Shown: positions 2,331 through 45,822 of the stretch, one piece after another
Layout of the letters: every line of letters starts with the position of its first letter
How positions within the stretch are numbered: the first letter of the stretch is position 1
Origin: Escherichia coli
GTDB taxonomy: Bacteria; Pseudomonadota; Gammaproteobacteria; Enterobacterales; Enterobacteriaceae
Assembly: GCF_001677475.2 (NCBI RefSeq)
Contig: NZ_CP015229.1
DNA: 64,000 nucleotides
Reading direction: 5' to 3' (one strand)
Program-made: the position numbers and the translations under genes
The notes under the pieces: generated by a model
What the model was told of the DNA's origin: nothing
What the model saw: only the letters and a program-made list of their open reading frames with translations
The model's database searches: none

Positions 2331-2344
2331 CATCCACCGGTGAA

Positions 2345-3085: not shown

Positions 3086-3208
3086 GTCCGGTATTCCATT
3101 TTAAAATAAGATAAAAAAGAGTCGGCATAGTAATGCTTACAATTTCTCCGGTGCAAGATTCATATTTATATAGTAATATATAAAATTATATATAATTGGG
3201 CTGTTGCG

Positions 3209-5316: not shown

Positions 5317-5321
5317 AAGTA

Positions 5322-5645
5322 TTACTCGGCAGAAGAGGATTTGATGTCGGCGAGCTGTTTCTCCAGCCCGGCAATACGCTGTTGTAGTTGCACAACGGAG
5401 GAGTCATGGTTTTGCATTCCCCATCCCCGCTCCGGGCGGTAAAGCGTGGCCCAAATCCACAAAAATGGCCAGATAACATGCAGCGTAAAAAGACTCACCC
5501 AACCAGCGACATGAATGGCGTCGGCATGAGGATGATTACGTTTTTTAGCAATCAGGTAGGGAATATCATGTAAAATAATAATCCCATAGAATATCACCAG
5601 AAATACAAAAATAAGCACTCCCAGTGCAAAATAATCCAGGAACAT
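5322..5645 (-). CDS. yiaW: Small inner-membrane protein YiaW (DUF3302-like)
   Basis: Track ORF 5322..5675; I choose ATG at 5645 ([13 protein letters not shown]…, 107 aa) with GAGGG upstream; two predicted TM helices plus a C-terminal coiled-coil tail. Confidence 0.8.
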
Positions 5646-6066
5646 ATTTCCCTCAGAGAATATAAAAAAGAACAATTAACGCATATTATGAAATGCCATG
5701 ATGCAGTGCAATTTCCTTATTTATATAACGACATATTGTTTTTTATATACTTTCTGAAGTGTGCTGCCTGGCTTTTCAGCAGGTCGAGGCTTATCATATT
5801 GAAATAATGGAACTATTGACAAAACTAATGAATAACTCCAGTAAAACATCCACAGTACAGATAAAGCGTATTAAACCTTCAATTATCTACCGTTTATTGC
5901 TGATTGGCCTCGGAACACCAATGGTGATTTACGGCCTGGTTCGCCCGCTCACCATCGAAACGCGAGATTAAACTCCTGGCAAAACACGCCCCAGAAACGC
6001 ACTTCTGTTGGCGTAGTCTGGGTTATTGCGCACGTAGGTTTAAAACGTAAATTGTAACAAAGTGCG

Positions 6067-6148
6067 CTTTGTTTATGCCGGATGCGGCGTGTACGCCTTA
6101 TCCGGCCTACGGTCAGGTCCCCGTAGGCATGATAAGACGCGTAAGCGT
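6067..6148. repeat. REP pair (BIME) downstream of aldB
   Basis: gccggatgcggcgtgtacgccttatccggcctac and gtaggcatgataagacgcgtaagcgtcgcatcaggc: canonical inverted REP units. Confidence 0.65.
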
Positions 6149-6189
6149 CGCATCAGGCAATGAATACCCAATGCGACCAGCTTCTTATA

Positions 6190-7728
6190 TCAGAACAGCC
6201 CCAACGGTTTATCCGAGTAGCTCACCAGCAGACACTTGGTTTGCTGATAATGCTCCAGCATCATCTTATGGGTTTCGCGTCCGATGCCCGACTGTTTGTA
6301 GCCGCCAAACGCCGCATGTGCCGGGTAAGCGTGATAACAGTTGGTCCACACGCGCCCGGCCTGAATGCCGCGCCCCATCTTATAGGCCAGATTACCGTTG
6401 CGGCTCCAGACGCCCGCGCCCAGGCCATATTGCGTGTCATTCGCCAGCTCCAGCGCCTCTTCCATCGTTTTGAAGGTGGTCACCGCCAGCACCGGGCCAA
6501 ATATCTCTTCCTGGAACACACGCATATTGTTCTGACCAAACAGAATCGTCGGTTCGAGGTAGTAGCCGTCTTTCAGTTCGCCTTCCAGCAGCTTGCGCCG
6601 CCCGCCGGTAAGCACATCTGCGCCCTCTTTTTTGCCGATATCAATGTAATTGAGGATGGTTTCCAGTTGCCCGTGAGATACCTGCGCGCCCATTTGCGTC
6701 ACGCTGTCGAGCGGGTTACCGCTACGAATGCTTTCAACACGACGGATGGCGCGTTCCATAAAGCGTTCGTAGATAGACTCCTGCACTAAAGCACGGCTTG
6801 GACAGGTGCAAACTTCGCCCTGGTTGAAGGCGAACAATGCAAAGCCCTCCAGCGCCTTATCGAAGAAAGCATCTTCTTCATCCATCACATCGGCAAAGAA
6901 GATATTTGGCGACTTACCGCCCAACTCCAGCGTCACCGGAATAATATTTTGCGTGGCGTACTGCATAATCTGCTGACCGACTTCCGTTGAGCCGGTAAAC
7001 GCCACTTTGGCGATACGTTTTGAGGTCGCCAGATATTCACCTATTTCGCCGCCCGCACCGTTGACCACGTTCACCACGCCTGGCGGCAGTAAATCACCGA
7101 CGATCTCCATCAAAAGCAACACTGAAAGCGGGGTAAGTCGTGCGGGTTTTAGCACCACGCAGTTGCCCGCCGCCAGCGCGGGAGCCATTTTCCAGCTCGC
7201 CATCAGCAACGGGAAGTTCCACGGGATAATCTGCCCCACCACGCCTAACGGTTCGTGGAAGTGATAAGCCACAGTTTCGCTATCGACTTCACTGATCCCA
7301 CCTTCCTGCGCCCGAATACACGAGGCGAAATAGCGGAAATGGTCAATCGCCAGCGGCACATCGGCAGCACTGGTTTCGCGGATGGGCTTGCCGTTATCCC
7401 AGGTTTCTGCCGTCGCTAACAGTTCGAGGTTCTGCTCCATCCGATCGGCAATCTTAAACAGAATCGCCGCGCGATCCTGCACCGAGGTATGCGCCCATTT
7501 GTCTTTCACTTTATGCGCGGCATCCAGCGCCAGATCGATGTCGCGTTTGCCCGAAGACGCCACTTCGCACAGTAGCTGCCCGGTCACCGGCGTCAGGTTC
7601 TGGTAATACTCGCCGTCGGCGGGTGCTACCCATTCGCCGCCGATAAAGTTGTCATAGCGAGCTTTTAACTTGAGGGGGAAACCATACTCGCCGGGCTTAA
7701 TCTGTGCTGAAGGGGGATTGTTGGTCAT
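6190..7728 (-). CDS. aldB: Aldehyde dehydrogenase B
   Basis: Track ORF is 558 aa; conserved protein begins at [17 protein letters not shown]… (ATG 7728, AAGGAGACGATC upstream), giving 512 aa; classic ALDH motifs present. Confidence 0.95.
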
Positions 7729-7892
7729 GATCGTCTCCTTGCGGTGTGAGGTATAACAAGGGTAGACGTGACTGGCGAAATCTTCGCCAGCCGGTGACAG
7801 CTTTACGACGGCAATCACGAATTTACGGGCAAGGATTACAGAGATAATTGAAAAATCGGCTGACAATTTGCCAGCCGTTGTGGGAATGATGA

Positions 7893-9044
7893 TTACATCG
7901 CAGCGCGATAAATCGCCACAATTTCTTCGTGAGTTGCCTGAATCGGGTTAGTAAATCCGCAGGCATCTTTCAGAGCATTGGTCGCCAGTACCGCGAAATC
8001 TTCTTCTTTCACGTTCAGATCGCGCAGACCTGCCGGAATATCGACTTTCTTCGCCAGTTCACGGATAGCGTTAATGCAGGCTTCTGCACCTTCCGCGTCG
8101 TTTTTACCTGTCACGTTCACGCCCATTGCAGCAGCGCAGTCACGCAGACGTGCGGCAGCTACTTTGCTGTTGAATACCTGAACGTGCGGCAGCAGAACGG
8201 CGTTACATACACCGTGCGGCAGGTTGTAGAAACCGCCTAACTGGTGCGCCATCGCATGAACATAACCCAAAGACGCATTGTTGAACGCCATACCGGCGAG
8301 GAACTGGGCATAAGCCATCGCTTCACGCGCTTTCGCATTGCTGCCATCTTCTACGGCTAACGGCAGGTTTTCGGCAATCATGGTCACGGCTTTCAGTGCG
8401 CAAGCGTCAGTGATCGGCGTTGCGGCAATAGACACATACGCTTCGATAGCGTGTGTTAAGGCATCCATACCCGTTGCAGCGGTCAGTGACTTCGGCATAC
8501 CGATCATCAGAGAGGAGTCATTGACAGAAAGCAGCGGAGTCACGTGTTTATCCACAATCGCCATTTTGATGTGGCGCGCTTCGTCAGTGATAATGCAGAA
8601 ACGGGTCATTTCAGACGCAGTACCCGCCGTGGTGTTGATGGCGATCATCGGCAACTGCGGTTTTGCAGAGCGGTCAACGCCTTCGTAATCGCGAATATCA
8701 CCGCCGTTGGCTGCCACCAGCGCAATGCCTTTCGCACAATCGTGCGGAGAACCACCACCTAAGGAAATCACGCTATCGCAATTATTTTCTTTCAGCAGTT
8801 TGAGGCCTGCGGCGACGTTTTCCGTAGTTGGGTTAGGCTGGGTGCCATCATAAATAACGCTAAAAATATTGCGTTCTTCCAGTGCTTTTTGCACATCGCC
8901 CGCCATACCTAATTTCGTTAAAATATTGTCAGTAACAATTAATGTACGGGTAAAGCCATAGTCTGCCATCATATTCATTGCATCATTCAATGAATCAGCG
9001 CCGATGACATTCACTGAAGGAATAAAAAAGGTTGAAGCTGCCAT
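7893..9044 (-). CDS. yiaY: Iron-containing (group III) alcohol dehydrogenase YiaY
   Basis: 383-aa ORF with Fe-ADH signatures ([11 protein letters not shown]…, …HAMAHQLGG…). Confidence 0.9.
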
Positions 9045-9142
9045 AAAACACTCCTGGAAGAGTAAAAAGGGCTGGCAGATTACAAAGTATTTTCATTCGG
9101 AAATATGATCAACATTACCGTTTATCAAAATATTTTTAATAA

Positions 9143-9175
9143 AAAGCACGTTACATTCATCAAATAACGTGCTTC
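9143..9175 (-). terminator. Candidate stem-loop downstream of selB (possible selAB terminator)
   Basis: Inverted repeat aaagcacgtta / taacgtgctt with an 11-nt loop in an AT-rich spacer; no clean U-tract, so weak. Confidence 0.3.
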
Positions 9176-9232
9176 TTTAATATTAATAAGAATTTTGTAT
9201 TAATTCATATTTATTATGAATTAATCATTTCC

Positions 9233-11077
9233 TTATTTTTCGGGAAATAATAATGCATCGCGCAATAAATGATCATTTCCACGACGCCGCGTAAAGCCAA
9301 TGCGGTCAAAATATTCCAGAATCTGAATTGCCAGCTTTCGGCCTACACCTAAGCGATCGCGGAAATCCGCCGCGCAGGTTGAGCCACATTCCTGATCGAG
9401 ATCGCGGATCATATTGGCAAATTCAACAATCCGATCATTACGGTAATAACGATCTTTGACGATCGCCGTAATTATCCCCTGCTGTGCCGCCTGGCGTAGC
9501 GTCAAGCGCATTGCCTGCTCGTCGGTTCCCGTCTCTTTTGCCAGGTCACGCACCCACCACGGCTCGTCACCAAACAGCGGCTCTGCTTTTTGCCAGATGG
9601 CCTGCTGCTCTTCGCTGAAGCCCGCTTTGTGATCCGGCAGATGCAGCCAGCCGTGATGACTGAGGATGTCGCCGCTTTCGCGCATCTTTTCAATCAGCAA
9701 CAGTACCAGCGCTTCATCTTCCATTGGCAACGCCATACGTCGCAGACGTTCGCGCCCAGGACCAGGTTCATCGCGATGTTGCTCATGATAAGTCGCTAAT
9801 GTGTCGAGAATTTTCCGCTGCCAGCGGGCGGCAACCGGCGCATTCAACAAGCTATAACCAGCCTGAATATAGCCAGGCTGTTGCAATAGTTCGCGCATCC
9901 CTTCGCCGTTGAGCTGCCGTGCCCAGGCGAAATCGGCAAGGTTAACCGCGCCGCGTTCCAGATGAACAGATAACGCATCGGCATCGCTCTGCGCCCGTGC
10001 CAGTGACGCCAGCCATTGCAGATATTCCGGCTTACGTTTACCGCGACGCGGCGGGTTAAGCATCACCACACGCGCCCCCGCCAGCGTGTTGCGGGCCGAG
10101 ATATCGCGCAGCACTAAGCGATCGTTATCCGCCAGCCACAGCGGCGTGTCGAACACCAGCTCGGCAAGGTTATCTTCCAGCAGCGAAACGCGCCCCGTAA
10201 CATGGCTGGCGGCGTGGTGAATATGCAGCGGCTGCCACTGGGTCAGCGGTGTATGAGTTTGAAGCTCGACAATCACCCGTGTGAACGGCTCTGGCGGCAC
10301 ATCGGCAAGCAGCCAGTCGCCACGGTTAATCTGCTCTTTTTCCGCATCACCCGCGATGTTAAGTGCGATACGCTGCCCGGCATGGGCGGTTTCTGTTGGC
10401 TGGTTTTGCGCATGCAGCGCACGTACACGCATCGATTTATTTACACCAGTCAGCCATAGTGAATCGCCTACCTTCACTTCCCCGCTTAACGCCGTACCGG
10501 TGACGACCAGCCCGGCACCTTTTACAGTAAATGCGCGGTCGATCGCGAGGCGGAAACTATGTTGGCTGGCGTGTTCACGTTCTGGTAACTGAAGCAGATG
10601 CTCGCGCAGGGCATCAATTCCCCGACCTTCGGTTGCTGCGGTGATAAACAGTTTTGCCTCAGCAAAACCGTATTCCCGCAGCACCTCCTTTACCTGGCGT
10701 TCAACCTCATCAACACGCGCTTCGTCCACGCGATCGGCTTTGGTCAGCGCCACTGTCAGCATCGGGTTACCAGTCAGCTGCAAAATCGCCAGATGCTCAC
10801 GGGTCTGTGCCATCACGCCGTCATCGCACGCCACCACCAACAGCGCGTGATCGATACCACCAACGCCCGCCAGCATGTTGGAAAGAAACTTTTCATGACC
10901 GGGAACGTCGATAAAACCAGGCACGCGGCCATCCGGCTGCGGCCAGTAGGCATAACCGAGATCGATGGTCATGCCGCGCTTTTTTTCTTCCGGCAGACGG
11001 TCGGCATTTACGCCAGTAATCGCCTGCAATAAGGTTGTTTTGCCGTGGTCAACGTGTCCGGCAGTCGCAATAATCAT
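9233..11077 (-). CDS. selB: Selenocysteine-specific elongation factor SelB
   Basis: 614-aa ORF; N-terminal GTPase motifs ([24 protein letters not shown]); start overlaps selA stop. Confidence 0.95.
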
Positions 11078-12465
11078 TTCAACAACATCTCCAAAAACCG
11101 TTGCTCATCTTCAAGGCAGCGTAAATCCAGCCACAATCGTCCGTCATAAATACGACCAATCACCGGCACTGGCAATTCACGCCAGCGGGCGGCTAATGAC
11201 TCAAGGTGGCTACCGCGTCCATCATGGGGTGTAAACGTTAATGCCGCGCTCGGCAGGCGATCAACCGGCAGCGAACCACTGCCAATCTGCGAAAGACATG
11301 GCATAACCTGGACTGCAAACTCCGCGCCGTAATGTGCGGCAAGGGGAGCCTGTAAACGTTGTGCCTGGATTTGAATGACCTCTGCGCTGCGGGTAAGCAG
11401 GCGCAGGGTCGGTAATTTTTCACTCAGCGCCTCAGGGTGTAAATAAAGACGCAGCGTGGCTTCCAGCGCCGCGAGGGTCATTTTATCCGCGCGTAATGCA
11501 CGCTTCAGTGGATGGCTTTGCAGGCGGGCGATCATCTCTTTTTTACCAACGATAATCCCTGCCTGCGGCCCGCCTAACAACTTGTCGCCGGAGAAGCTCA
11601 CCAGGCTGACGCCCGCCGCAATCAACTCCTGCGGCATCGGCTCTTTCGGCAAACCGTACTGGCTAAGATCGACCAGCGAACCACTGCCTAAATCAGTCAC
11701 TACGGGAACATCCAGTTCTTTGCCAAGCGCCACCAGTTCAGCTTCATCTATCGCTTTGGTGAACCCCTGAATGCTGTAGTTACTGGTATGTACTTTCATC
11801 AACAGTGCGGTATTTTCATTCACCGCCTGACGATAATCATTCGCGTGCGTGCGGTTGGTGGTCCCCACTTCGTGCAGGGTACAGCCAGCCTGACGCATGA
11901 CGTCAGGGATACGAAACGCGCCGCCGATCTCCACCAGTTCGCCACGAGACACCACCACCTCTTTACCGCTGGCAGTGGCCGCCAACATCAATAACACCGC
12001 CGCCGCATTGTTATTAACGATACAGGCATCTTCCGCCCCCGTAATACGGCACAGCAGCTGCGCCAGCGCACGATCGCGATGTCCGCGTCCGGCGTCGTCC
12101 AGATCGTACTCCAGCGTCACCGGCGAACGCATAGCCTGCGCAACGGCTTCCACCGCGGCTTCTGCCTGTAAAGCTCGCCCAAGATTGGTATGCAGCACGG
12201 TTCCCGTCAGGTTGATCACCGGACGCAGCGCGCTCTGCGCTTCTTTCGTCAACCGGGCATCGACTTCTTGCGCCCAGTTCTCACACCACGCGGGCAGCGT
12301 CTGGCTGTCACGAATCACTTCTCGCGCTTCGTCAAGCATCTGACGCAGCAATTCCACCACGCGGGTGTGACCATAAGTATCACGCAAAGAAAGGAAGGAG
12401 CTATCGCGCAATAAGCGATCAATAGCCGGAAGTTGACTATAGAGGGAACGCGTTTCGGTTGTCAT
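11074..12465 (-). CDS. selA: L-seryl-tRNA(Sec) selenium transferase SelA
   Basis: 463-aa ORF recognised as SelA ([19 protein letters not shown]…), PLP-dependent fold. Confidence 0.95.
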
Positions 12466-19660: not shown

Positions 19661-20023
19661 ATGAAAGAAGTCGAAAAAAACGAAATCAAACGTCTCAGCG
19701 ATCGTCTGGACGCCATCCGTCACCAGCAGGCCGATCTGTCGCTGGTTGAAGCCGCAGACAAATATGCCGAACTGGAAAAAGAGAAAGCTACGCTGGAAGC
19801 TGAAATTGCCCGCCTGCGTGAAGTTCATAGCCAGAAACTCAGCAAAGAAGCACAAAAGCTGATGAAGATGCCGTTCCAGCGTGCGATTACCAAAAAAGAA
19901 CAAGCCGATATGGGTAAGCTGAAGAAGAGTGTCCGTGGGTTAGTCGTAGTGCATCCGATGACCGCACTGGGTCGTGAAATGGGTCTGCAAGAGATGACCG
20001 GGTTCTCAAAGACAGCGTTTTAA
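19661..20023 (+). CDS. yibL: DUF2810-family protein YibL
   Basis: 120-aa ORF ([42 protein letters not shown]…). Confidence 0.85.
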
Positions 20024-20048
20024 CCCTCTTACCTGTATATCTCCCTCA

Positions 20049-20074
20049 CATCCCGCGTTTCTAAATGCGGGATG
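20049..20074 (+). terminator. Candidate stem-loop downstream of yibL
   Basis: Perfect 8-bp stem catcccgc/gcgggatg with a 10-nt loop, 26 nt after the yibL stop; T-rich stretch follows only after ~20 nt. Confidence 0.35.
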
Positions 20075-20513
20075 CAACAAATATCCTCCTCTTTTTCCTC
20101 TGTTACCTCGTAGAGTCTACTTTTTACCAATGGCACTAAATCTGAAAATGCATTCAGTAAAAGGTTTGGTTCGACGCCTAAAAATGGAAGATATCATTCA
20201 TAAAATAAAACTTTTGCCGTTATTTTTTCCATCTACATTCTAAAAACTCACCCAAAACATTTATTGTGTGAATATTAAATGAAAGCTATTTTTCTGCTTT
20301 AAATGCAGTGTTTGACATCTGATAACCCTCCTCATTAAAATCCGCCTCCCTAACACAATTAAACAATTTTAAAACTTAATAAATAATTTTCATAACAAAT
20401 ATATTCGCAACATTCATAAAGCCAGCCGTATAAATCGCAAAAGCATCAACCACAAATGGACACATCCCTTAGACCGCGTTGGTATCAGGGATGATATGTA
20501 AGGATAACTTTAT

Positions 20514-21197
20514 ATGAAAGTGAATAAATTATTGATAAGCGTCCTGGCGGCTTCGACAATACTGATGCTGTCAGGTTGTGATTACGTCGAAAAAACGAAA
20601 GTCGTTGATGAACTCACAAAACAACAAGAAGAACAAAAGGCCAGAATTGATCAACTCGAAAAACGATTAGAACAAGAAACCAAAAAGACAAACACCATTG
20701 AAAAACAAAGCATTAGTCTGATAAACAGTACAAAGCTGCTGGCTCAGGTAGTGAAAGAGATTAAGCATCAGCAAGATACATTTGTCTTTACTGAATTTAA
20801 CCCCGATCAAACAAAATATTTCATTTTAAATAACGGTTCGGTAGGTATTGCCGGCAGGGTGTTATCTGTTGAAGCAATAGAAAATGGCAGTGTTATTCAT
20901 ATGTCATTGGCCAATTTATTAAGTGTTCCCGTATCAAATATTGGTTTTCATGCCACCTGGGGCGGTGAAAGACCGGGTGATCAAAAAGAATATGCCAAAT
21001 GGCAACAACTGCTATTTAGCACCAACATGAACTCCACGCTGAAATTATTACCAGGTCAATGGCAAGACATTAACTTGACGTTAAAAGGGGTGTCTCCCAA
21101 CAACCTGAAATACCTGAAGTTGGCTATTAATATGCAGAATATCAACTTCGACAACCTTCCACCTGCTGATAACCGGCAGAAAAAAAGCAAAAAATAA
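20514..21197 (+). CDS. Inner-membrane lipoprotein, SadB-like putative helper of trimeric autotransporter biogenesis
   Basis: 227 aa; signal peptide with lipobox LSGC then Asp at +2 (C22-D23, inner-membrane retention); charged coiled-coil segment (QQEEQKARIDQLEKRLEQETKK); 43 bp upstream of the adhesin gene on the same strand; AAGGA 9 nt before the ATG. Function assigned by analogy with Salmonella sadB-sadA. Confidence 0.7.
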   Translation: MKVNKLLISVLAASTILMLSGCDYVEKTKVVDELTKQQEEQKARIDQLEKRLEQETKKTNTIEKQSISLINSTKLLAQVVKEIKHQQDTFVFTEFNPDQTKYFILNNGSVGIAGRVLSVEAIENGSVIHMSLANLLSVPVSNIGFHATWGGERPGDQKEYAKWQQLLFSTNMNSTLKLLPGQWQDINLTLKGVSPNNLKYLKLAINMQNINFDNLPPADNRQKKSKK

Positions 21198-21240
21198 ATG
21201 CAGTCATTGCACTTATATCAAGGAATAGAGAGCAACAACA

Positions 21241-24200
21241 ATGAACAAAATTTTTAAAGTTATCTGGAACCCTGCGACGGGAAGTTACAGCGTCGCCAGC
21301 GAAACGGCAAAAAGCCGTGGAAAGAAGAGCGGTCGCAGCAAGCTGTTAATTTCTGCGTTGGTTGCCGGTGGGTTGCTGTCGTCGTTCGGGGCGAGTGCTT
21401 CTGTCAGTCTTGATGGTGGTACATATTCTGATGGCACCGAACTTACTGATGCATGGATTGCTATTGGTAAAGGTGCGAAAGCTTCCTCTGTAGGCGGTAG
21501 CACAGCAAGTATTTCTATTGGGGTAAATGCAATCTCTGCTGCTGGGGCTACTGCAGTGGGTTATAACAGTAATGCTACTGGACAAAGTTCAGTATCAATG
21601 GGGCAGCTATCGAAAGCCACAGGGAGCAGGGGGGTTGCTATCGGCAGTGGAGCTAGTGCCATTGGCGACTATACAGTTGCATTAGCGGTTGGCTCCAGTG
21701 CTAGCGGTGAGAGTGCAGTGGCAATAGGTCAAGGTTCCGGAGCCAAAAATAAAGGTAGTGTTGCGTTAGGTAACAGAGCGTCATCATTAGGAGAAAAATC
21801 GGTAGCACTAGGGGTAGACAGTAAGGCCACTGGTGACGATAGCCTGGCATTAGGTAGAAACGCCTTGGGCAATAGCACAGGTTCCATTGCAATGGGTGCC
21901 GCAAGCGAAGCCAATGGATTATATAGTTTGGCATTAGGCGCAAGCAGCGTAGCTAACGCGGACAATACCGTTGCGCTCGGATATGGTGCCAATGCAGCCA
22001 AAGCTGGAGCAATGGCTTTCGGTCAGGCAGGAAAGGCAGATGGTGTAAATTCTATTGCGCTGGGTAATAAAAGTCAGTCAAGCGGCGAAAACAGTATTGT
22101 GCTTGGACAAGAAAGCTATGCTGGTAGTGAAAAAAGTATTGCGATTGGTAGCCTGTCCAACGTAACCGGTGTTAACTCCGTTGCTCTGGGCACAGAGTCT
22201 ACTGCCGTGGAAGATAATACTGTTTCAGTAGGTAACGACACGCTGCAGCGTAAAATTGTCCATATGGGAAAAGGCGATATTAGCAGTACCAGTACTGATG
22301 CCATCAATGGTTCACAGCTTTATGATATCAGTAAGTCAGTTGCAGACCGTCTGGGCGGCGGTGCCTCCGTGAGTACTGCCGGGGTTGTTAACGCCCCTAA
22401 CTACAAACTGCAAAGTGGTAACTTTAATAATGTTGGCGACGCATTAAAGGGTCTTGATGATAATACGTTGCAATGGGACTCGCTTAAAAAAGTCTACAGT
22501 GCAAAACACGGTTCCGATGCCACCAGCAAAATCACCAACGTTACGGCGGGTGAGCTGAACGCATCCAGTACCGACGCCGTTAACGGTTCTCAGTTGAAAA
22601 CCACTAACGACAATGTGGCAACCAACACCACTAATATCAGCAACCTGACCGGCGAAGTTGCTAACAACACCACCAATATCACTAACCTGACGAATGATGT
22701 TGCCGCCAACACCACCAGTATCACCAACCTGGCTGATACGGTGACTAACCTTGGTGAAGATGCGCTGAAATGGGATGACACCGCTGGCGTATTCACTGCT
22801 GCACACGGCACCGAAGCCACCAACAAAATCACCAATGTTACGGCAGGTGAGCTGACGGAGACCAGTACCGATGCGGTTAACGGTTCTCAGTTGAAAACCA
22901 CTAACGATAACGTGGCAACCAACACCACCAGTATCACCAACCTGACTGATACAGTGACTAACCTTGGTGCCGACGCGCTGGCATGGGATGACGCCTCAGG
23001 TGCATTCACCGCCAAACACGGCACCGAAGCCACCAACAAAATCACTAACGTTACGGCAGGTGAACTGACGGAGACCAGTACCGATGCCGTTAACGGTTCT
23101 CAGTTGAAAACCACTAACGATAACGTGGCAACCAACACCACCAATATCAGCAACCTGACCGGCGAAGTTGCTAACAACACCACCAACATCACTAACCTGA
23201 CGAATGATGTTGCCGCCAACACCACCAGTATCACCAACCTGGCTGATACGGTGACTAACCTTGGTGCCGACGCGCTGGCATGGGATGACGCCTCAGGTGC
23301 ATTCACCGCCAAACACGGCACCGAAGCCACCAACAAAATCACTAACGTTACGGCGGGTGAGCTGACGGAGACCAGTACTGATGCCGTTAACGGTTCTCAG
23401 TTAAAAACCACTAACGACAATGTGGCAACCAACACCACCAACATCACCAATCTGGCTGATACGGTGAACAACCTCGGTGAAGATGCGCTGAAATGGGATG
23501 ACGCCGCAAGCGCATTCACCGCTGCACACGGCACCGAAGCCACCAGCAAAATCACTAACGTCACCGCTGGAACAATCTCGTCTACCAGTACCGACGCTGT
23601 TAACGGTGGGCAACTCTTTAGCTTAAGTGATTCACTGGCAGACTATTTTGGCGGTAACGCCTCGGTTGATGAAAACGGTGTATTTACTGGCCCGTCCTAC
23701 ACCATCGGTAGCAACAGCTACGATAACGTAGGTGATGCGCTGGCGGCGATTAACACCTCCTTTAGCACTTCACTGGGCGACGCTCTGCTGTGGGATGAAA
23801 CGGCAAGTGCATTCAGCGCCGGCCACGGTGGCAATGCCAGCAAAATTACCAATGTCGCAAACGGTACTATTTCTGAAACCAGCACCGATGCCATCAATGG
23901 TGGGCAACTCTACGGTGTGAGCAACTCTGTTGTTGATGCCCTGGGCGGTGGCGCCGCAGTAAATGCTGACGGTAGCATCAGTGCGCCGACGTACTCCATT
24001 GCTGATACCGATTACAATAACGTCGGTGATGCTCTGGACGCGATCGACTCAACCCTGGATGATGCGCTGCTCTGGGACGCAACCGCCGGTGAAAATGGTG
24101 CGTTCAGCGCCAGCCGCGATGGCAAAGCCAGCGTAATCACTAATGTTGCTAATGGTGATATTTCTGAAACCAGTACTGATGCAATTAATGGTTCACAGTT

Positions 24201-25905
24201 GTTCGCCACCAACACGTTGATCAATCAGCAAAATGAGATCATCAACCAGATTGCCGGTAATACCAGCACAGACTACATCGAAGAGAACGGTGCGGGTCTG
24301 AACTATGCGCGTACTAATGACACCGGCTTAACCTTTATTGATGCGAGCGCATCAGGTACTGGCGCTACAGCGGTGGGTTATAACGCTGTCGCTTCCGGCG
24401 AAAGCAGTGTCGCAATTGGTCAGAATAGCAGCAGCAGCGTTGATACTGGTATCGCGCTGGGTAGCGAATCCGTCTCCAGCCGTGTGATTGTTAAAGGTTC
24501 TCGTAACACCAGCGTAACCGAAGAAGGCGTTGTGATTGGTTACGACACCACTGACGGCGAACTGCTTGGTGCATTGTCGATTGGCGATGATGGTAAGTAC
24601 CGTCAGATCATCAACGTTGCTGATGGTACTGAATCCCATGACGCCGTGACTGTACGCCAGTTGCAAAACGCCATTGGTGCGGTCGCCACTACGCCGACCA
24701 AGTACTACCATGCCAACTCAACGGAAGAAGATTCACTGGCGGTAGGTACTGACTCGCTGGCGATGGGCGCGAAAACTATCGTCAATGGTAATGCGGGTAT
24801 TGGTATCGGCCTGAATACTCTGGTTCTGGCAGATGCCATCAACGGTATTGCTATCGGTTCTAACGCACGCGCCAACCATGCAAACAGTATTGCAATGGGT
24901 AATGGTTCTCAGACCACTCGCGGCGCTCAGACTGGCTACACCGCCTACAACATGGACGCGCCGCAGAACTCTGTCGGTGAGTTCTCTGTCGGCAGTGAAG
25001 ACGGTCAACGTCAGATCACTAATGTCGCGGCGGGTTCGGCAGATACCGATGCCGTTAACGTTGGTCAGTTGAAAGTGACGGACGCACAGGTTTCCCAGAA
25101 CACCCAGAGCATTACTAACCTGAATACTCAGGTAACGAATCTGGATACCCGCGTCACCAATATCGAAAACGGTATTGGCGATATCGTAAGCACCGGTAGC
25201 ACCAAGTACTTCAAGACCAACACCGATGGCGTAGATGCTAACGCGCAGGGTAAAGACAGTGTTGCGATTGGCTCTGGCTCTATTGCTGCCGCTGATAACA
25301 GCGTTGCGCTGGGTACTGGCTCTGTGGCAAACGAAGAAAATACGATCTCCGTAGGTTCTTCCACTAACCAACGCCGTATCACCAACGTTGCCGCTGGTAA
25401 AAATGCTACTGACGCGGTTAACGTTGCGCAGTTGAAGTCTTCCGAAGCAGGCGGCGTGCGCTATGACACCAAAGCTGACGGTTCTGTTGATTACAGCAAC
25501 ATCACTCTCGGCGGTGGTAATGGCGGAACGACTCGCATCAGCAACGTTTCCGCTGGCGTTAACAACAACGACGCGGTGAACTACGCGCAGTTGAAGCAAA
25601 GCGTGCAGGAAACGAAGCAATACACCGATCAGCGCATGGTTGAGATGGATAACAAACTGTCCAAAACCGAAAGCAAGTTGAGCGGTGGTATCGCTTCTGC
25701 AATGGCGATGACCGGTCTGCCGCAGGCTTACACGCCAGGTGCCAGCATGGCCTCCATTGGTGGCGGTACATACAACGGTGAATCGGCTGTTGCTTTAGGT
25801 GTGTCGATGGTGAGCGCCAACGGTCGTTGGGTCTACAAATTACAAGGTAGTACCAATAGCCAGGGTGAATACTCCGCCGCACTTGGTGCCGGTATTCAGT
25901 GGTAA
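21241..25905 (+). CDS. upaG: Trimeric autotransporter adhesin (YadA-like), UpaG/EhaG family
   Basis: 1554-aa ORF; extended signal peptide [21 protein letters not shown]…; YadA-like head repeats (…SVALG.NS.A.G…); long Thr/Asn-rich repetitive stalk; C-terminal membrane-anchor domain ending …AALGAGIQW. Confidence 0.9.
22561..23580 (+). repeat. Intragenic tandem duplication in the adhesin stalk (2 x ~510 bp)
   Basis: 22561-23070 and 23071-23580 align co-linearly; the first ~300 bp of each copy differ at only a few positions, the remainder is ~85% similar. Further divergent stalk repeats with 210-300 bp spacing extend to ~24240. Confidence 0.7.
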
Positions 25906-25937
25906 TGACCCATTAACAAATGGGTAAACGCCAAATT

Positions 25938-26020
25938 GCCTGATGCGCTACGCTTATCAGGCCTACAGGGGATTCTGCACATTCCTGTAGGCCGGATAAG
26001 GCGTTCACGCCGCATCCGGC
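25938..26020. repeat. REP pair (BIME) downstream of the adhesin gene
   Basis: gcctgatgcgctacgcttatcaggcctac (25938-25966) and gtaggccggataaggcgttcacgccgcatccggc (25987-26020). Confidence 0.65.
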
Positions 26021-26106
26021 AAGATAAGACGCACCAGGTCAATGGTCTAAGGGCAATTCTCTGACGGGGATTGCCCTTTTCTTTACCAGACATCTCCCTA
26101 TCAAAA

Positions 26107-26249
26107 AATTGGCCCTACCAATTCTTCGCTTATCTGACCACTGGTTCACAGTTCCCCAATTAAAACTCACATTAACGTTGCCAATACAAAACATTTAGTT
26201 AACTATTCATTGTCATTATCCCTACACAACAAAATTGGCAGTGCCACTT
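26107..26249 (+). promoter_or_regulatory. lldPRD control region with two LldR-type operators
   Basis: Palindrome AATTGGccctaCCAATT at 26107-26123 and related AATTGGcagtgCCActT at 26233-26249, ~200 and ~75 bp upstream of lldP ATG 26322. Confidence 0.5.
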
Positions 26250-26321
26250 TTACACAACGTGTGACAAGGAGATGAGCAACAGACTCATTACACGATGTGC
26301 GTGGCCTCCAGGAGACCTGCA

Positions 26322-27977
26322 ATGAATCTCTGGCAACAAAACTACGATCCCGCCGGGAATATCTGGCTTTCCAGCCTGATAGCATCGCTTCCCATCCTGT
26401 TTTTTTTCTTTGCGCTTATTAAGCTCAAACTAAAAGGCTATGTCGCCGCTACATGGACAGTCGTTATCGCTCTGACTGTCGCGCTATTGTTCTACAAAAT
26501 GCCGGTCGCCAATGCGCTGGCCTCAGTGGTTTATGGCTTCTTCTACGGTTTGTGGCCCATCGCGTGGATCATTATTGCAGCGGTGTTCGTCTATAAGATC
26601 TCGGTGAAAACCGGACAGTTTGACATCATCCGCTCGTCTATTCTTTCAATAACCCCTGACCAGCGCCTGCAAATGCTGATCGTCGGTTTCTGTTTCGGCG
26701 CATTTCTCGAAGGTGCCGCAGGCTTTGGCGCACCGGTAGCAATTACCGCCGCATTGCTGGTCGGGCTGGGCTTTAAACCGCTGTACGCCGCCGGGCTGTG
26801 CCTGATTGTTAACACCGCGCCGGTGGCATTTGGCGCGATGGGTATTCCGATTCTGGTTGCCGGACAGGTAACAGGCATCGACAGCTTTGAGATTGGCCAG
26901 ATGGTGGGACGTCAGCTACCGTTTATGACCATTATCGTGCTGTTCTGGATCATGGCGATTATGGACGGCTGGCGGGGTATCAAAGAGACGTGGCCTGCGG
27001 TCGTGGTCGCGGGAGGCTCGTTTGCCATCGCACAGTACCTTAGCTCTAACTTTATTGGGCCGGAACTGCCGGACATTATCTCTTCGCTGGTATCGCTGCT
27101 CTGCCTGACACTGTTCCTCAAACGTTGGCAGCCGGTGCGCGTTTTCCGCTTCGGCGATCTGGGCGCATCGCAAGTTGATATGACGCTGGCTCATACCGGT
27201 TACACCGCAGGTCAGGTGTTACGCGCCTGGACACCGTTCCTGTTCCTGACCGCCACCGTAACGCTGTGGAGTATTCCGCCGTTTAAAGCCCTGTTCGCTT
27301 CGGGTGGTGCGCTGTATGAATGGGTGATCAATATTCCGGTGCCGTACCTCAATAAACTGGTTGCCCGTATGCCGCCAGTGGTCAGCGAAGCGACAGCGTA
27401 TGCCGCCGTGTTTAAGTTCGACTGGTTCTCTGCCACCGGTACCGCCATTCTTTTTGCTGCCCTGCTCTCGATTGTCTGGCTGAAGATGAAACCATCTGAC
27501 GCTATCAGCACCTTCGGCAGCACGCTGAAAGAACTGGCTCTGCCCATCTACTCCATCGGTATGGTGCTGGCGTTCGCCTTTATCTCGAACTATTCCGGAC
27601 TATCATCAACGCTGGCGCTGGCACTGGCGCACACCGGCCATGCATTCACCTTCTTCTCGCCGTTCCTCGGCTGGCTTGGTGTCTTCCTGACCGGATCGGA
27701 TACCTCATCTAACGCCCTGTTCGCCGCCCTGCAAGCCACTGCAGCACAACAAATTGGCGTTTCTGACCTGTTGTTGGTTGCCGCCAACACCACCGGTGGT
27801 GTCACCGGTAAGATGATCTCTCCGCAATCTATCGCTATCGCCTGTGCGGCGGTAGGCCTGGTAGGCAAAGAGTCAGATCTGTTCCGCTTTACCGTCAAAC
27901 ACAGCCTGATCTTCACCTGTATGGTGGGCGTGATTACCACGCTTCAGGCCTACGTCTTAACGTGGATGATTCCGTAA
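26322..27977 (+). CDS. lldP: L-lactate permease
   Basis: Track ORF from 26295; conserved start ATG 26322 ([15 protein letters not shown]…) after AGGAG; 551 aa, multi-TM. Confidence 0.95.
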
Positions 27978-28753
27978 TGATGGTTATACCCAGACGCCTG
28001 TCAGACGAGGTAGCTTCCCGTGTGCGGGCGCTGATTGAAGAACAAAATCTGGAACCGGGCATGAAGTTGCCCGCTGAACGCCAACTGGCGATGCAGCTCG
28101 GCGTGTCGCGTAATTCACTGCGCGAGGCGCTGGCGAAACTGGTGAGTGAAGGTGTGCTTCTTAGTCGTCGCGGTGGCGGGACGTTTATTCGCTGGCGCCA
28201 TGACGTGTGGTCGGAACAAAACATCGTCCAGCCGCTGAAAACGCTAATGGCCGATGATCCGGATTACAGCTTCGATATTCTGGAAGCCCGCTACGCCATT
28301 GAGGCCAGCACCGCCTGGCACGCAGCAATGCGTGCCACACAAGCCGATAAAGAAAAGATACAGCTCTGCTTTGAAGCGACGCTGAGTGAAGACCCGGATC
28401 TCGCCTCGCAAGCGGACGTTCGTTTTCATCTGGCAATTGCCGAAGCCTCACATAACATCGTGCTGCTGCAAACCATGCGCGGTTTCTTTGATGTCCTGCA
28501 ATCTTCAGTGATGCAAAGTCGTCAGCGGATGTATCTGGTGCCGCCCGTTTTTTCGCAACTGACTGAACAGCATCAGGCGGTCATTAACGCCATTTTTGCC
28601 GGTGATGCCGACGGTGCGCGTAAAGCAATGATGTCGCACCTCAGCTTTGTCCACACCACCATGAAACGATTCGATGAAGATCAGGCTCGCCGTGCACGCA
28701 TTACCCGCCTGCCCGGTGAGCATAATGAGCATTCGAGGGAGAAAAACGCATGA
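27977..28753 (+). CDS. lldR: GntR/FadR-family L-lactate regulator
   Basis: Start taken at ATG 27977 ([11 protein letters not shown]…), overlapping the lldP stop by 1 nt, 258 aa; N-terminal wHTH. Confidence 0.9.
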
Positions 28754-29940
28754 TTATTTCCGCAGCCAGCGATTATCGCGCCGCAGCGCAACGCATTTTG
28801 CCGCCGTTCCTGTTCCACTATATGGATGGTGGTGCATATTCTGAATACACGCTGCGCCGCAACGTGGAGGATTTGTCAGAAGTGGCGCTGCGCCAGCGTA
28901 TTCTGAAAAACATGTCCGACTTAAGCCTGGAAACGACGCTGTTTAATGAGAAATTGTCGATGCCAGTGGCGCTGGCTCCGGTGGGTTTGTGCGGCATGTA
29001 TGCGCGTCGCGGCGAAGTTCAGGCAGCCAAAGCGGCTGATGCGCATGGCATTCCGTTTACTCTCTCAACGGTTTCAGTTTGCCCGATTGAAGAAGTCGCT
29101 CCAGCTATCAAACGTCCGATGTGGTTCCAGCTTTATGTGCTGCGCGATCGCGGCTTTATGCGTAACGCACTGGAACGGGCAAAAGCGGCGGGCTGTTCGA
29201 CACTGGTTTTCACCGTGGATATGCCGACGCCAGGCGCACGTTATCGTGACGCACACTCCGGTATGAGCGGCCCGAATGCCGCAATGCGCCGCTACTTGCA
29301 GGCGGTGACGCATCCGCAATGGGCGTGGGATGTCGGCCTGAACGGTCGTCCACATGATTTAGGTAATATTTCGGCTTACCTCGGCAAACCGACCGGACTG
29401 GAAGATTACATCGGCTGGCTGGGGAATAACTTCGATCCGTCCATCTCATGGAAAGACCTTGAGTGGATCCGCGATTTCTGGGATGGCCCGATGGTGATCA
29501 AAGGGATCCTCGACCCGGAAGATGCGCGTGATGCAGTACGTTTTGGTGCTGACGGGATTGTGGTTTCTAACCACGGTGGCCGCCAGCTGGACGGTGTACT
29601 CTCTTCCGCTCGTGCGCTGCCCGCTATTGCGGATGCGGTAAAAGGTGATATCGCCATTCTGGCGGATAGCGGGATTCGTAACGGGCTTGATGTCGTGCGT
29701 ATGATTGCGCTCGGTGCCGACACCGTACTGCTGGGTCGTGCTTTCCTGTATGCGCTGGCAACAGCGGGCCAGGCGGGTGTAGCTAACCTGCTGAATCTGA
29801 TCGAAAAAGAGATGAAAGTGGCAATGACGCTGACTGGCGCGAAATCGATTAGCGAAATTACGCAAGATTCGCTGGTGCAGGGGCTGGATAAAGAGTTGCC
29901 TGCGGCACTGGCTCCGATGGCGAAAGGGAATGCGGCATAG
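28750..29940 (+). CDS. lldD: FMN-dependent L-lactate dehydrogenase
   Basis: 396-aa ORF, alpha-hydroxy acid oxidase family (…[10 protein letters not shown]…). Confidence 0.95.
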
Positions 29941-39123: not shown

Positions 39124-40149
39124 TTAATCCCAGCTCAGAATAACTTTCCCGGACTGGCCCGAACGCATGGCGTCAAAGCCCTTCTGGAAATCATCGATAG
39201 AGAAACGATGGGTAATGATCGGCGAGAGATCGAGGCCAGACTGAATCAGCGCCGCCATCTTGTACCAGGTTTCAAACATCTCACGACCGTAAATACCTTT
39301 AATGAACAAGCCTTTAAAGATCACTTTGGTCCAGTCGATAGACATATCAGACGGTGGAATACCCAGCATCGCAATGCGACCGCCGTGGTTCATGGTGTCG
39401 AGCATGGTACGAAACGCTGGCGGCGCACCGGACATTTCCAGACCGACATCAAAGCCTTCGGTCATGCCTAGCTCCGCCATCACGTCATTGAGATTTTCTT
39501 TCGCGACGTTAACCGCACGGGTGATACCCATTTTGCGCGCCAGCTCAAGGCGGTATTCGTTAACATCAGTAATCACCACGTTACGTGCACCAACGTGTTT
39601 CGCCACCGCCGCCGCCATAATACCAATCGGGCCTGCACCAGAGACCAGCACATCCTCGCCCACCAGATCAAACGACAGCGCGGTATGCACGGCGTTACCG
39701 AAGGGATCAAAAATGGAAGCCAGATCATCGGAGATATTGTCGGGGATTTTGAAAGCGTTGAACGCCGGAATCACCAGATACTCGGCGAAGCAGCCCGGAC
39801 GGTTAACGCCGACGCCGATCGTGTTGCGGCACAGATGGGTACGACCGCCACGACAGTTGCGACAGTGACCGCAGGTGATATGGCCTTCGCCAGAAACGCG
39901 ATCGCCAATCTTGAAGCCTTTCACTTCCTGACCAATACCTACCACTTCACCGACATATTCATGGCCCACGACCATCGGCACCGGGATGGTTTTTTGCGAC
40001 CACTCATCCCAGTTATAGATGTGAACGTCAGTCCCGCAGATGGCTGTTTTACGGATTTTAATCAGCAGATCGTTATGCCCGAGTTCCGGTACAGGAACGT
40101 CGGTCATCCAGATGCCCTCTTCCGCTTTCAGTTTGGATAACGCTTTCAT
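39124..40149 (-). CDS. tdh: L-threonine 3-dehydrogenase
   Basis: 341-aa zinc-dependent MDR-family ORF. Confidence 0.95.
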
Positions 40150-40158
40150 CTCACATCC

Positions 40159-41355
40159 TCAGGCGATAACGCCCAGTTGTTTACCAATACGCGTGAATGC
40201 TTCTACTGCACGCGTAATTTGCTCAGGGGTATGCGCCGCAGACATCTGGGTACGAATACGCGCCTGACCTTTCGGAACGACCGGATAGAAGAAACCGGTG
40301 ACGTAAATGCCCTCTTTTTGCAGCTCACGGGCAAATTTCTGCGCCACTACTGCATCACCAAGCATGACCGGAATAATGGCGTGATCGGCTCCCGCCAGGG
40401 TAAAGCCCGCCGCCGACATTTGCTCACGGAACTGACGCGCGTTCGCCCAGAGACGGTCACGCAGCTCGCTACCCGCTTCAACCATCTCCAGCACTTTGAT
40501 GGACGCGGCAACAATGGCCGGTGCCAGCGAGTTGGAGAACAGGTACGGACGAGAACGCTGGCGCAGCCACTCAACCACTTCTTTGCGCGCCGCGGTATAA
40601 CCACCAGAAGCCCCGCCCAGCGCTTTACCGAGCGTGCCGGTGATAATATCGACCCGGCCCATCACATCGCAGTATTCATGGGAACCACGACCGTTTTCAC
40701 CGACAAAACCTACCGCGTGGGAGTCGTCTACCATCACCAGGGCATCATATTTATCTGCCAGATCGCAAACGCCCTTCAGGTTGGCAATCACGCCGTCCAT
40801 CGAGAACACACCATCGGTGGCAATCAGCACATGACGCGCACCGGCTTCACGCGCTTCTTTCAGACGTGCTTCCAGCTCCTGCATATCGTTGTTGGCATAG
40901 CGATAGCGTTTAGCTTTGCACAGACGCACACCATCAATAATAGACGCGTGGTTCAGTGCGTCGGAGATAATGGCGTCCTCCGCGCCTAACAGCGTTTCGA
41001 ACAGGCCACCGTTAGCATCAAAGCAGGAAGAGTAGAGAATCGCATCTTCCATCCCCAGGAAGGCCGCCAGTTTTTGTTCAAGCTCTTTATGGCTGTCCTG
41101 AGTGCCGCAAATAAAACGCACCGAAGCCATGCCGAAACCGTGAGAATCCATTCCCGCCTTTGCTGCCGCAATCAGATCCGGATGATTCGCCAGCCCGAGA
41201 TAGTTGTTGGCACAAAAGTTAATGACGTGGCTTCCATCAGCCACAGTGATATCTGCTTGCTGCGCAGACGTAATAATGCGCTCTTCTTTAAACAACCCTT
41301 CCGCCCGTGCGGTTTCCAGATCGTTGGTTAACTGCTGATAAAATTCTCCACGCAT
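40159..41355 (-). CDS. kbl: 2-amino-3-ketobutyrate CoA ligase (glycine C-acetyltransferase)
   Basis: 398-aa PLP-dependent ORF, immediately upstream of tdh. Confidence 0.95.
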
Positions 41356-41568
41356 TGCGATTCTCCAGACAGGGCAAATTCCAGCACATATTACCCAAAC
41401 TTATAGGTCGCGACGAGATGACGCGTTAACACTTCTGCAAAATTCAGGATAAATAACGTCCATCAATCTCACTTTTGGCGAATGGCTGAAGCCAACGCCG
41501 TGTAGTGATATGATAGAAGTATTCGTGTCTGAGATTGTCTCTGACTCCATAATTCGAAGGTTACAGTT

Positions 41569-42501: not shown

Positions 42502-42503
42502 CT

Positions 42504-43550: not shown

Positions 43551-43553
43551 CGG

Positions 43554-44513: not shown

Positions 44514-44522
44514 AGGTAAAAC

Positions 44523-45788: not shown

Positions 45789-45795
45789 ACAAGTT

Positions 45796-45822
45796 TAAGA
45801 AGTGAGTTTTAACTCACTTCTT
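45796..45822. terminator. Hairpin at the convergent waaL / waaU junction
   Basis: Inverted repeat aagaagtgagtt / aactcacttctt; overlaps the waaU stop, so acts for both converging operons if functional. Confidence 0.4.

Follow-up and report, generated by a model that had tools for sequence, protein, structure and literature searches.

What do the long, closely similar repeats in the middle of ORF 21241–25905 encode, and does their number change? The ORF lies in a 64,000-nucleotide stretch of DNA (hereafter the window). We consider that its repetitive interval is best explained as the middle stalk of a SadA/UpaG/EhaG-type adhesin, where modules are gained and lost in frame via misaligned recombination or slippage, with a resulting change in fiber length (probability of roughly 85%). 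The array is ordinary, already-described biology and does not constitute a new kind of system.

The adhesin gene and its locus

The ORF is predicted to encode a trimeric autotransporter adhesin of the SadA/UpaG/EhaG type. Its product is identical to GenBank ANO91553.1 (“YadA-like family protein”), and Pfam identifies ESPR, multiple YadA_head, 12 YadA_stalk, and YadA_anchor domains. Indeed, the C-terminal anchor, together with a signal peptide and a passenger composed of a head, necks, and a coiled-coil stalk, is the arrangement of a type Vc (trimeric autotransporter) protein. Homology to trimeric crystal structures suggests that the adhesin is an obligate homotrimer of the outer membrane. Homologs named SadA-like, UpaG, or EhaG are 69 to 100% identical to the window protein, with values of 69 to 90% for the listed members from Salmonella and E. 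coli. Similarity extends over the full length, reaching 85 to 86% identity with Salmonella adhesins of 1610 residues, and UpaG-named and EhaG-annotated genes are among the matches.

The genes surrounding the adhesin are arranged in the order mtlADR–sadB–adhesin–lldPRD, and the matching E. coli sequences carry an lldPRD annotation. This position, adjoining lldPRD and downstream of mtlADR, is that of the SadA/UpaG/EhaG group, whose members occur with or without sadB. SadA of Salmonella enterica and UpaG/EhaG of E. coli occupy the same locus (sadB–adhesin–lldP) and share the domain grammar of the window protein, which includes the ESPR, Ylhead, neck, FGG, DALL2, long neck, asparagine-layer coiled coil, and anchor. 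The SadB lipoprotein aids display of the adhesin in Salmonella (PMC11054257, PMC7247746). An NCBIfam scan of the adhesin yielded only sub-threshold matches to other trimeric autotransporter models, with no equivalog at cut-off, and the same scan of the upstream sadB-like ORF returned no SadB match. The names used here therefore derive from similarity (PDB, BLAST) and synteny. ORFs are also present on the opposite strand inside the adhesin gene (e.g., 22444–22806).

Table 1. Features of the adhesin gene, its upstream neighbor, and the repeat array, in window coordinates.
Feature	Coordinates	Strand	Evidence
sadB-like gene, 227-aa lipoprotein	20514..21197	+	PDB 4C47, E 5.3e-70
Predicted trimeric autotransporter adhesin gene, 1554 aa; SadA/UpaG/EhaG positional ortholog	21241..25905	+	ORF, Pfam, synteny
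Extended signal peptide region (ESPR), aa 1-48	21241..21384	+	Pfam PF13018, E 2.6e-15
N-terminal YadA-like head repeats, aa ~99-333	21535..22239	+	multiple PF05658 YadA_head matches
First neck and FGG-type insert, aa 338-407, just before the array	22252..22461	+	YadA_stalk match aa 338-379
Module A, 99 aa, DALL2-like, long neck, 8-heptad coiled coil; boundary module	22462..22758	+	
Nested 42-bp (14-aa, two-heptad) sub-repeat, 2.6 copies, module A	22623..22731	+	Tandem Repeats Finder, period 42, 80% matches
Module B, 71 aa, DALL2, long neck, 4-heptad coiled coil	22759..22971	+	
Module C, 99 aa, DALL2, long neck, 8-heptad coiled coil	22972..23268	+	PDB 2YNZ, E 7.7e-23; 3ZMF, 2YO2, 2WPR
42-bp sub-repeat, 2.6 copies, module C	23133..23241	+	Tandem Repeats Finder
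Module D, 71 aa, DALL2, long neck, 4-heptad coiled coil	23269..23481	+	
Module E, 99 aa, DALL2, neck, FGG insert	23482..23778	+	PDB 2YO2 (SadA FGG/DALL2/neck fragment), E 1.2e-27
Module F, 94 aa, DALL2, neck, FGG insert	23779..24060	+	
Module G, last DALL2 and neck; leads to longer coiled coil and second head	24061..24240	+	
YadA-like membrane anchor, aa 1494-1554	25720..25902	+	Pfam PF03895, E 1.4e-19

Modular anatomy of the repeat array

The interval 22462–24240 is composed of seven modules arranged head to tail. Four modules, which together occupy 1020 bp (22462–23481), carry a DALL2, a long neck, and a coiled coil (297, 213, 297, and 213 bp), two carry a DALL2, a neck, and an FGG insert, and one final module carries a DALL2 and a neck. 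Successive module starts (Table 1) are spaced by 297, 213, 297, 213, 297, and 282 bp. The D-A-L-x-W β-layer motif and the TDAVNxxQL neck motif of the DALL2/long-neck/coiled-coil arrangement are found in all seven. Module C aligns to residues 51 to 124 of 2YNZ in a register that agrees with published annotation (PMC4786415, table 2). The entries matched by the array (2YNZ, 3ZMF, 2YO2, and 2WPR) are structures of SadA DALL2, long-neck, and FGG regions (PMC4786415, table 2; PMC7247746), of which 2WPR gives a weak match (E 5e-4). Every module type has a counterpart among the solved fragments.

The length of each coiled-coil module conforms to 43 + 7n residues, where n is 8, 4, 8, and 4 heptads in the window, such that one long and one short module together create the 510-bp period. 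A long module exceeds a short one by two copies of a 42-bp sub-repeat that encodes two heptads, and Tandem Repeats Finder likewise reports a period of 213 (90% matches) with a nested period of 42 bp. The heptads alternate between VxxNTTx and IxNLxxx (e.g., VATNTTN/ISNLTGE/VANNTTN/ITNLTND), and when the sequence is listed seven residues at a time, every second heptad has asparagine at core position d. Asparagine core layers at this position (N@d layers) were reportedly described by Hartmann in 2009.

Each repeat encodes one self-contained structural module of a known kind. The chain proceeds from a coiled coil through a β-layer and a DALL2 connector to a long neck (motif TDAVNGSQL), from which a new coiled coil begins, and within the coiled coil hydrophobic core layers alternate with asparagine core layers (VxxNTTx/IxxLxxx).

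The sequence-only reading had proposed tandem copies of ~510 bp at 22561–23070 and 23071–23580, detectable as a line in a dot-plot at that offset. Self-comparison, with a diagonal called at ≥75% identity in 60-nt windows, produced such a line, unbroken at an offset of 510 bp, which pairs 22487–23098 with 22997–23608 at 88% identity. Further lines are present at offsets of 297, 213, 807, and 723. The two proposed copies are 88.4% identical overall, although the assertion that their first ~300 bp are almost identical was somewhat overstated: identity is 91.7% over the first 300 bp and 83.8% over the last 210 bp, and the truly near-identical part is restricted to 22591–22756 (97.6%). Similarly, the repeat is present, but the copy boundaries of 22561 and 23071 are arbitrary in phase relative to the domain boundaries, where modules start at 22462 and 22972. 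The additional units that had been noted at 210- to 300-bp spacing up to ~24240 fit the module spacings of 213 to 297 bp, and the assignment of the repeats to an adhesin stalk is borne out by the Pfam YadA domains and the matches to solved SadA stalk fragments.

The longest exact repeats are 104 nt (22954–23057 and 23251–23354), 79 nt (22678–22756 and 23188–23266), and 55 nt, whereas codon shuffling of the gene (20 versions) leaves longest exact repeats of 12.7 nt on average and 15 nt at most. Between neighboring modules, identity is perfect over as much as 104 nt and is 90 to 97% over 150 to 300 nt. The coiled coils of modules A and C are 96.6% identical in nucleotide sequence. The DALL-neck block of module D is identical to that of module C in all amino acids and in 96.7% of nucleotides, and of 50 codons compared between these modules, 5 differ, all of them synonymously. 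Module F and the start of module G are ~81% identical over 95 nt.

Allelic variation and competing explanations

Such near-identical neighbors would permit misaligned homologous recombination or replication slippage to add or remove whole modules (213, 297, or 510 bp), and the nested 21/42-bp sub-repeat could allow the same process to add or remove single or double heptads. Every change of this type would be in frame and would preserve the coiled-coil register, so that the outcome should be a shorter or longer fiber rather than a broken protein. We estimate that the fiber would change by roughly 10 nm per long module. The molecular route may be RecA-dependent or may be slippage, and a change in length may benefit the cell.

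The alleles observed among relatives support this recombination and stalk-length reading, in agreement with the earlier suggestion that the repeats are recombination substrates that alter stalk length. Among the 120 homologs parsed, the number of coiled-coil modules ranges from 1 to about 7, each module being 71, 78, 85, 99, or 106 residues long (steps of 7). In contrast, the FGG modules are constant, and module E is present in all homologs parsed. Where flanks are identical or nearly so, the arrays differ only by whole modules (71, 99, or 184 residues) or by heptad multiples (7 or 14 residues). For example, P0008 aligns to the window protein with 0 mismatches and a single 99-residue gap, as do the Salmonella proteins P0052 and P0095 to each other, and the E. 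ruysiae proteins P0009 and P0055 have 0 mismatches and a 184-residue gap. P0005 exceeds the window protein by 14 and 7 residues, located in two coiled coils. In a draft allele, L002, exactly 297 bp of the window sequence are absent. The junction falls within the 104-nt exact repeat, and across 16.4 kb the two sequences are otherwise separated by a single SNP. A 1455-residue allele is present in GCA_018682865.1. Because MAFFT alignment of the arrays split a 297-bp difference into an artificial 213 + 84, arrays were compared register by register. Differences in module number between related strains are expected for this adhesin family.

Repeats of this kind invite the concern that the four-module order in the window was collapsed or misjoined during assembly, in which case its copy number and 510-bp period would not be genomic. 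This possibility has a precedent in badA, whose length of 9,249 bp was corrected to 11,922 bp with long reads (PMC8859334). Moreover, at 104 and 79 nt, the exact repeats in the window are longer than the k-mers in common use (77 or less). Among Salmonella orthologs exact repeats reach 495 nt, and both contigs in which the four-module allele was seen are longer than 1 Mb. For the family at large, the risk of collapse that had been raised is genuine, and metagenome scaffolds are the source of some of the shortest alleles. Any shorter allele from a draft or metagenome assembly (L002, and also P0029 and P0055, both derived from metagenome scaffolds) could reflect assembly collapse rather than real deletion.

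For the window itself, however, the doubt is weak because an identical 1554-residue allele occurs on 19 contigs, one of which is 5.5 Mb. An independent draft (GCA_031299685.2) is 100% identical over 10,665 bp. In addition, 104 nt is shorter than a standard read and is spanned by ordinary reads of 150 to 250 nt, the copies differ at many positions by which reads can be anchored, and collapse can only shorten an array, not create extra modules. Thus, the earlier caution that the true copy number is uncertain does not hold well here. We consider an artefactual array in the window improbable, and the copy number as assembled to be strongly, if not finally, supported.

Slightly less probable still is an account in which the repeats are static, representing old duplications kept alike by purifying selection alone, without current gain or loss, and in which length differences among alleles stem from misassembly or from deep divergence between lineages. 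In all trimeric autotransporters, the DALL, neck, and asparagine-layer motifs are indeed under strong constraint, and every homolog has modules A, E, F, and G in conserved positions. The boundary module 1 is orthologous across species: the DALL-neck block of module A is 86 to 98% identical to module 1 of the E. ruysiae, Salmonella, and E. coli proteins, versus 68% to modules B to D. The inner modules, in contrast, are 90 to 100% alike within a protein and 72 to 86% alike between species, which is a pattern of concerted evolution. Constraint on the protein also fits poorly with a likeness that reaches synonymous sites, as evidenced by the 104-nt exact run, the purely synonymous differences between modules C and D, and the A and C coiled coils. 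Furthermore, alleles separated by 0 to 3 substitutions differ by whole modules, and these include CP-accession chromosomes. On Salmonella chromosomes, genes that are almost identical elsewhere contain 2, 3, or 4 modules, and these alleles occur in 61, 18, and 2 collection blocks, respectively, that hold a contig >1 Mb (among them CP066545.1, CP191545.1, and CP022116.1).

Frameshift and slipped-strand phase variation have been discussed for other trimeric autotransporters such as badA (PMC8859334), but it is very improbable that the repeats act as an on/off contingency locus that silences the adhesin by frameshift, like the simple-sequence repeats of some pathogens, given that the periods of 21, 42, 213, 297, and 510 bp are all multiples of 3, that all 120 homologs parsed retain the array followed by a matching C-terminal region with in-frame array differences, and that Tandem Repeats Finder reports no period below 9 in 20000–27000.

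Alleles that differ in module number alone should not be regarded as distinct genes, and the length of this adhesin gene should not be trusted when it comes from short-read or metagenome assemblies. The allelic series provides a quantized example of how a trimeric fiber can change length without loss of register, by modules of 43 + 7n residues or by heptad steps.

Relation to known systems and possible roles

Periscope proteins share the same logic, wherein highly similar tandem coding repeats and homologous recombination produce in-frame gain or loss of units that extends or retracts a surface rod (PMC9704523). Strain-to-strain variation in repeat number that changes stalk length is a property that the present array has in common with them. 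However, periscope proteins are monomeric single chains of independently folding domains, and the review that defines them excludes trimeric autotransporters (PMC9704523). The window protein belongs to a trimeric family, and its repeats are 75 to 97% identical, compared with near 100% in periscope proteins.

We speculate, with considerable doubt, that the two tiers of variation (modules and heptads) reflect selected length-tuning, a trimeric counterpart of the periscope that sets how far the head projects beyond O-antigen or capsule, as opposed to a neutral by-product of repetitive DNA. SadA function is reportedly masked by LPS and fimbriae (PMC7247748). If tuning of this type occurs, lineages of Escherichia and Salmonella that differ in surface-polysaccharide type should differ correspondingly in module number. 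Length variation may also be relevant to the use of SadA, UpaG, and EhaG scaffolds as vaccines or for surface display.

Another trimeric autotransporter, Cha of a Haemophilus cryptic genospecies, is said to contain tandem peptide repeats that modulate adhesion (Sheets and St Geme, 2011, cited in PMC9704523). The number of in-frame passenger repeats in Cha reportedly varies and alters reach or activity. Its repeats are short peptides with a reportedly demonstrated phenotypic effect, whereas the units in the window are whole DALL-neck-coiled-coil modules and heptads.

BadA of Bartonella henselae, also a trimeric autotransporter, has a neck/stalk repeat array that varies among isolates because recombination duplicates, deletes, and reshuffles its modules, and its fiber length tracks gene length (PMC8859334). 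Its repeats have been under-counted in short-read or Sanger assemblies (PMC8859334). BadA differs in having about 30 modules, adjacent pseudogene “toolbox” copies, and frameshift variation as well. The window array has only 4 variable modules, the changes seen are all in frame, and a 150-nt module probe found no copy with ≥70% identity outside the array in a scan of the 64-kb window.

The closest relatives are SadA, UpaG, and EhaG, and the solved SadA fragments match the window array directly. Hartmann et al. are said to have assembled the SadA fiber structure from such fragments (2YNZ, 2YO2, 3ZMF, and 2YO0) in 2012. The window allele belongs to a divergent Escherichia lineage: compared with E. 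coli, its flanks are 95 to 97% identical and the gene itself is about 83% identical over part of its length. Module patterns differ as well, with coiled-coil modules of 99-71-99-71 residues in the window, two to four modules of 99 residues in the listed Salmonella proteins, and three to five modules of 78 residues, or mixtures of 71 and 78, in many E. coli proteins.

The adhesin gene and its locus

The repeats at 22440-24240 lie within a single long ORF on the + strand, whose product matches GenBank ANO91553.1 ("YadA-like family protein [Escherichia coli]") with 100% identity. Its Pfam matches comprise an ESPR signal region, YadA_head repeats, twelve hits to YadA_stalk (neck) and a C-terminal YadA_anchor, and identify the protein as a trimeric autotransporter adhesin. 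mtlA-mtlD-mtlR and three ORFs lie upstream, two of them small and the third resembling SadB; lldP-lldR-lldD lies downstream. The SadB-like ORF directly precedes the adhesin, making this a sadBA-type operon. The same locus holds SadA in Salmonella and UpaG/EhaG in E. coli, which are positional orthologues according to the literature (PMC7247748).

The sadB-like gene and the 20000-20500 region upstream are AT-rich (35-37% GC), and small tandem repeats occur nearby at 20087-20109 and 20351-20401. About 145 bp past the adhesin stop codon, a 13-bp stem-loop and the T-run after it form a candidate terminator separating the adhesin from lldP, although shuffled sequence also yields about one such site.

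Compared with complete E. coli genomes, the flanking DNA is 94.7-96.9% identical (96.9% for 1-12000 and 94.7% for 26295-29940), and the adhesin gene reaches only about 83% identity to E. coli genes, and that across part of its length. The host is therefore probably a divergent Escherichia lineage filed under E. coli. The waa (LPS core) cluster at 40000-52000 shares 99.0% identity with some E. coli genomes, which suggests recent import of this region or mosaic ancestry.

Modular structure of the stalk array

Self-comparison of the adhesin gene yields its strongest off-diagonal at an offset of 510 bp, followed by offsets of 297 and 213 bp; the 510-bp line runs unbroken over 22487-23098 when 60-nt windows must reach 75% identity. 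The sequence-only reading had described two ~510-bp tandem copies, 22561-23070 and 23071-23580, and the tandem repeats are real and were correctly recognized. The whole copies are 88.4% identical. Their first 300 bp, which had been called almost identical, share 91.7% and their last 210 bp 83.8%; this wording was a little generous, although 22591-22756 is 97.6% identical to its counterpart 510 bp on. The similarity is genuine, but the phase of these copies is arbitrary relative to domain boundaries. Exact repeats reach 104 nt (22954-23057 = 23251-23354, offset 297), and the next longest are 79 nt at offset 510 and 55 nt at offset 213; those in codon-shuffled adhesin genes never exceed 15 nt. 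Tandem Repeats Finder reports a period of 213 with a nested 42-bp period.

When parsed by its D-A-L-x-W and TDAVNG motifs, the array resolves into seven head-to-tail modules. Module C matches PDB 2YNZ (E 7.7e-23) as well as 3ZMF, 2YO2 and 2WPR, and modules E and F match 2YO2 (E 1e-27); the matched entries are SadA DALL2, long-neck and FGG structures (PMC4786415 table 2, PMC7247746).

Modules of the stalk array and neighboring features
Feature	Position	Strand	Length	Content
sadB-like ORF	20514-21197	+	227 aa	match to SadB inner-membrane lipoprotein (PDB 4C47, E 5e-70)
Adhesin ORF	21241-25905	+	1554 aa	
Module A	22462-22758		99 aa	DALL2 + long neck + coiled coil
Module B	22759-22971		71 aa	DALL2 + long neck + coiled coil
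Module C	22972-23268		99 aa	DALL2 + long neck + coiled coil
Module D	23269-23481		71 aa	DALL2 + long neck + coiled coil
Module E	23482-23778		99 aa	DALL2 + neck + FGG insert
Module F	23779-24060		94 aa	DALL2 + neck + FGG insert
Module G	24061-~24240			last DALL2 + neck, then next coiled coil
Stem-loop and T-run	26049-26078	+		candidate terminator

In the coiled-coil register of PMC4786415 table 2, short modules (71 aa) contain four heptads and long modules (99 aa) eight, with VxxNTTx (asparagine at core position d) alternating with IxxLxxx. Module length thus equals 43 + 7n residues. Two extra copies of the 42-bp sub-repeat distinguish a long module from a short one, and the 510-bp super-period is 297 + 213. 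A strong strand composition bias at 22500-23499 (AT skew +0.27 to +0.32, GC skew -0.14 to -0.16) is due to the run of ACC/AAC (Thr/Asn) codons encoding the asparagine-layer coiled coil.

The coiled coils of modules A and C share 96.6% nucleotide identity, the DALL-neck blocks of C and D are 100% identical in amino acids with five synonymous differences, and B and E have a GEDALKWDD variant in common. This mosaic pattern points to an origin by several exchanges rather than by one 510-bp duplication.

Length variation and turnover of modules

Among the best 120 homologues (P0001-P0120), every protein has both FGG modules and the last module, and coiled-coil modules number from 1 to about 7, with lengths of 71, 78, 85, 99 or 106 aa that step by one heptad. 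A UpaG-type variant has a connector two residues shorter. Where the flanks are identical or nearly so to the window, differences are confined to the array: relative to the window protein, P0008 (1455 aa) has no mismatches and a single 99-aa gap, P0029 (1412 aa) one mismatch and two 71-aa gaps, and P0005 (1575 aa) 11 mismatches and two coiled coils lengthened by 14 and 7 aa. The E. ruysiae proteins P0009 and P0055 differ by a single 184-aa gap and no mismatches. The proposal that recombination changes stalk length is supported by this comparison, in which changes are in-frame, keep register and involve either whole modules or heptads. The data exclude an on/off switch, since every period is divisible by 3 and all homologue length differences within the array are in-frame.

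Junctions of the length changes fall in the longest shared stretches. The P0008 locus (L002) equals the window minus 297 bp, with one other SNP across 16.4 kb; it tracks the left copy as far as 22953, then the right copy starting at 23355, placing the junction within the 104-nt exact repeat. In the P0029 locus (L003), one 213-bp difference is located in the 55-nt exact repeat and a second in about 13 nt of identity.

The first module is orthologous across species: it shares 86-98% identity with its counterparts in E. ruysiae, Salmonella and E. coli proteins and only 58-78% with inner modules. Inner modules share 90-100% identity within a protein versus 72-86% between species. Such a pattern is the signature of recurrent duplication, deletion and conversion within an array whose edges are stable. 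Neighboring modules may misalign during homologous recombination or replication slippage, and copies of the 21/42-bp sub-repeats may do likewise. Each long module would contribute a coiled coil of about 8 nm (56 residues x about 0.15 nm) plus the connector, on the order of 10 nm; SadA (1461 aa) has a modeled length of 108 nm (PMC7247746). We consider it unlikely that length variation is selected to match the thickness of surface polysaccharide.

Identity across the 120 homologues ranges from 12% to 100% in the N-terminal 400 aa (21241-22440, head region) and from 85% to 100% in the C-terminal 550 aa. Head cassettes appear to be swapped independently of stalk and anchor.

The array represents known biology within a known protein family. 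Its module types and the SadA/UpaG/EhaG fiber have been described (PMC4786415, PMC7247746, PMC7247748), and BadA exhibits neck/stalk repeat recombination, length variation and repeats under-counted by older sequencing (PMC8859334). Variation of tandem peptide repeats is documented for the trimeric autotransporter Cha, as cited in PMC9704523. Periscope proteins are similar in logic, but that concept explicitly leaves out trimeric autotransporters (PMC9704523). Heptad-quantized module polymorphism is predicted by the family's architecture, and we found no statement of it for SadA orthologues in the literature searched.

Real variants or collapsed assemblies

For L002, unequal crossover and de Bruijn graph loop-skipping predict one and the same sequence and cannot be told apart. 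At the second L003 junction, the approximately 13 nt of identity is too short for k-mer collapse. Module number also varies in chromosome-scale records of the SadA-type family. Salmonella alleles with two (P0095) and three (P0052) modules occur in 61 and 18 collection blocks, respectively, with contigs above 1 Mb, the latter including CP066545.1 and CP191545.1, and the two proteins differ by one 99-aa gap and no mismatches. The four-module allele (P0010) was seen on two contigs only, both larger than 1 Mb (one is CP022116.1), as expected under short-read collapse, and rarity could also explain this.

In Salmonella, exact intragenic repeats measure 182, 322 and 495 nt in genes with two, three and four modules (from position 1001 of L005, L008 and L011), so collapse is a serious risk there. 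The earlier doubt about copy number is largely answered for the window. Here the risk of collapse is small because no exact repeat is longer than 104 nt, collapse can only shorten arrays, 19 contigs (one of them 5.5 Mb long) carry the identical 1554-aa product, and an independent draft agrees at 100% identity across 10.7 kb.
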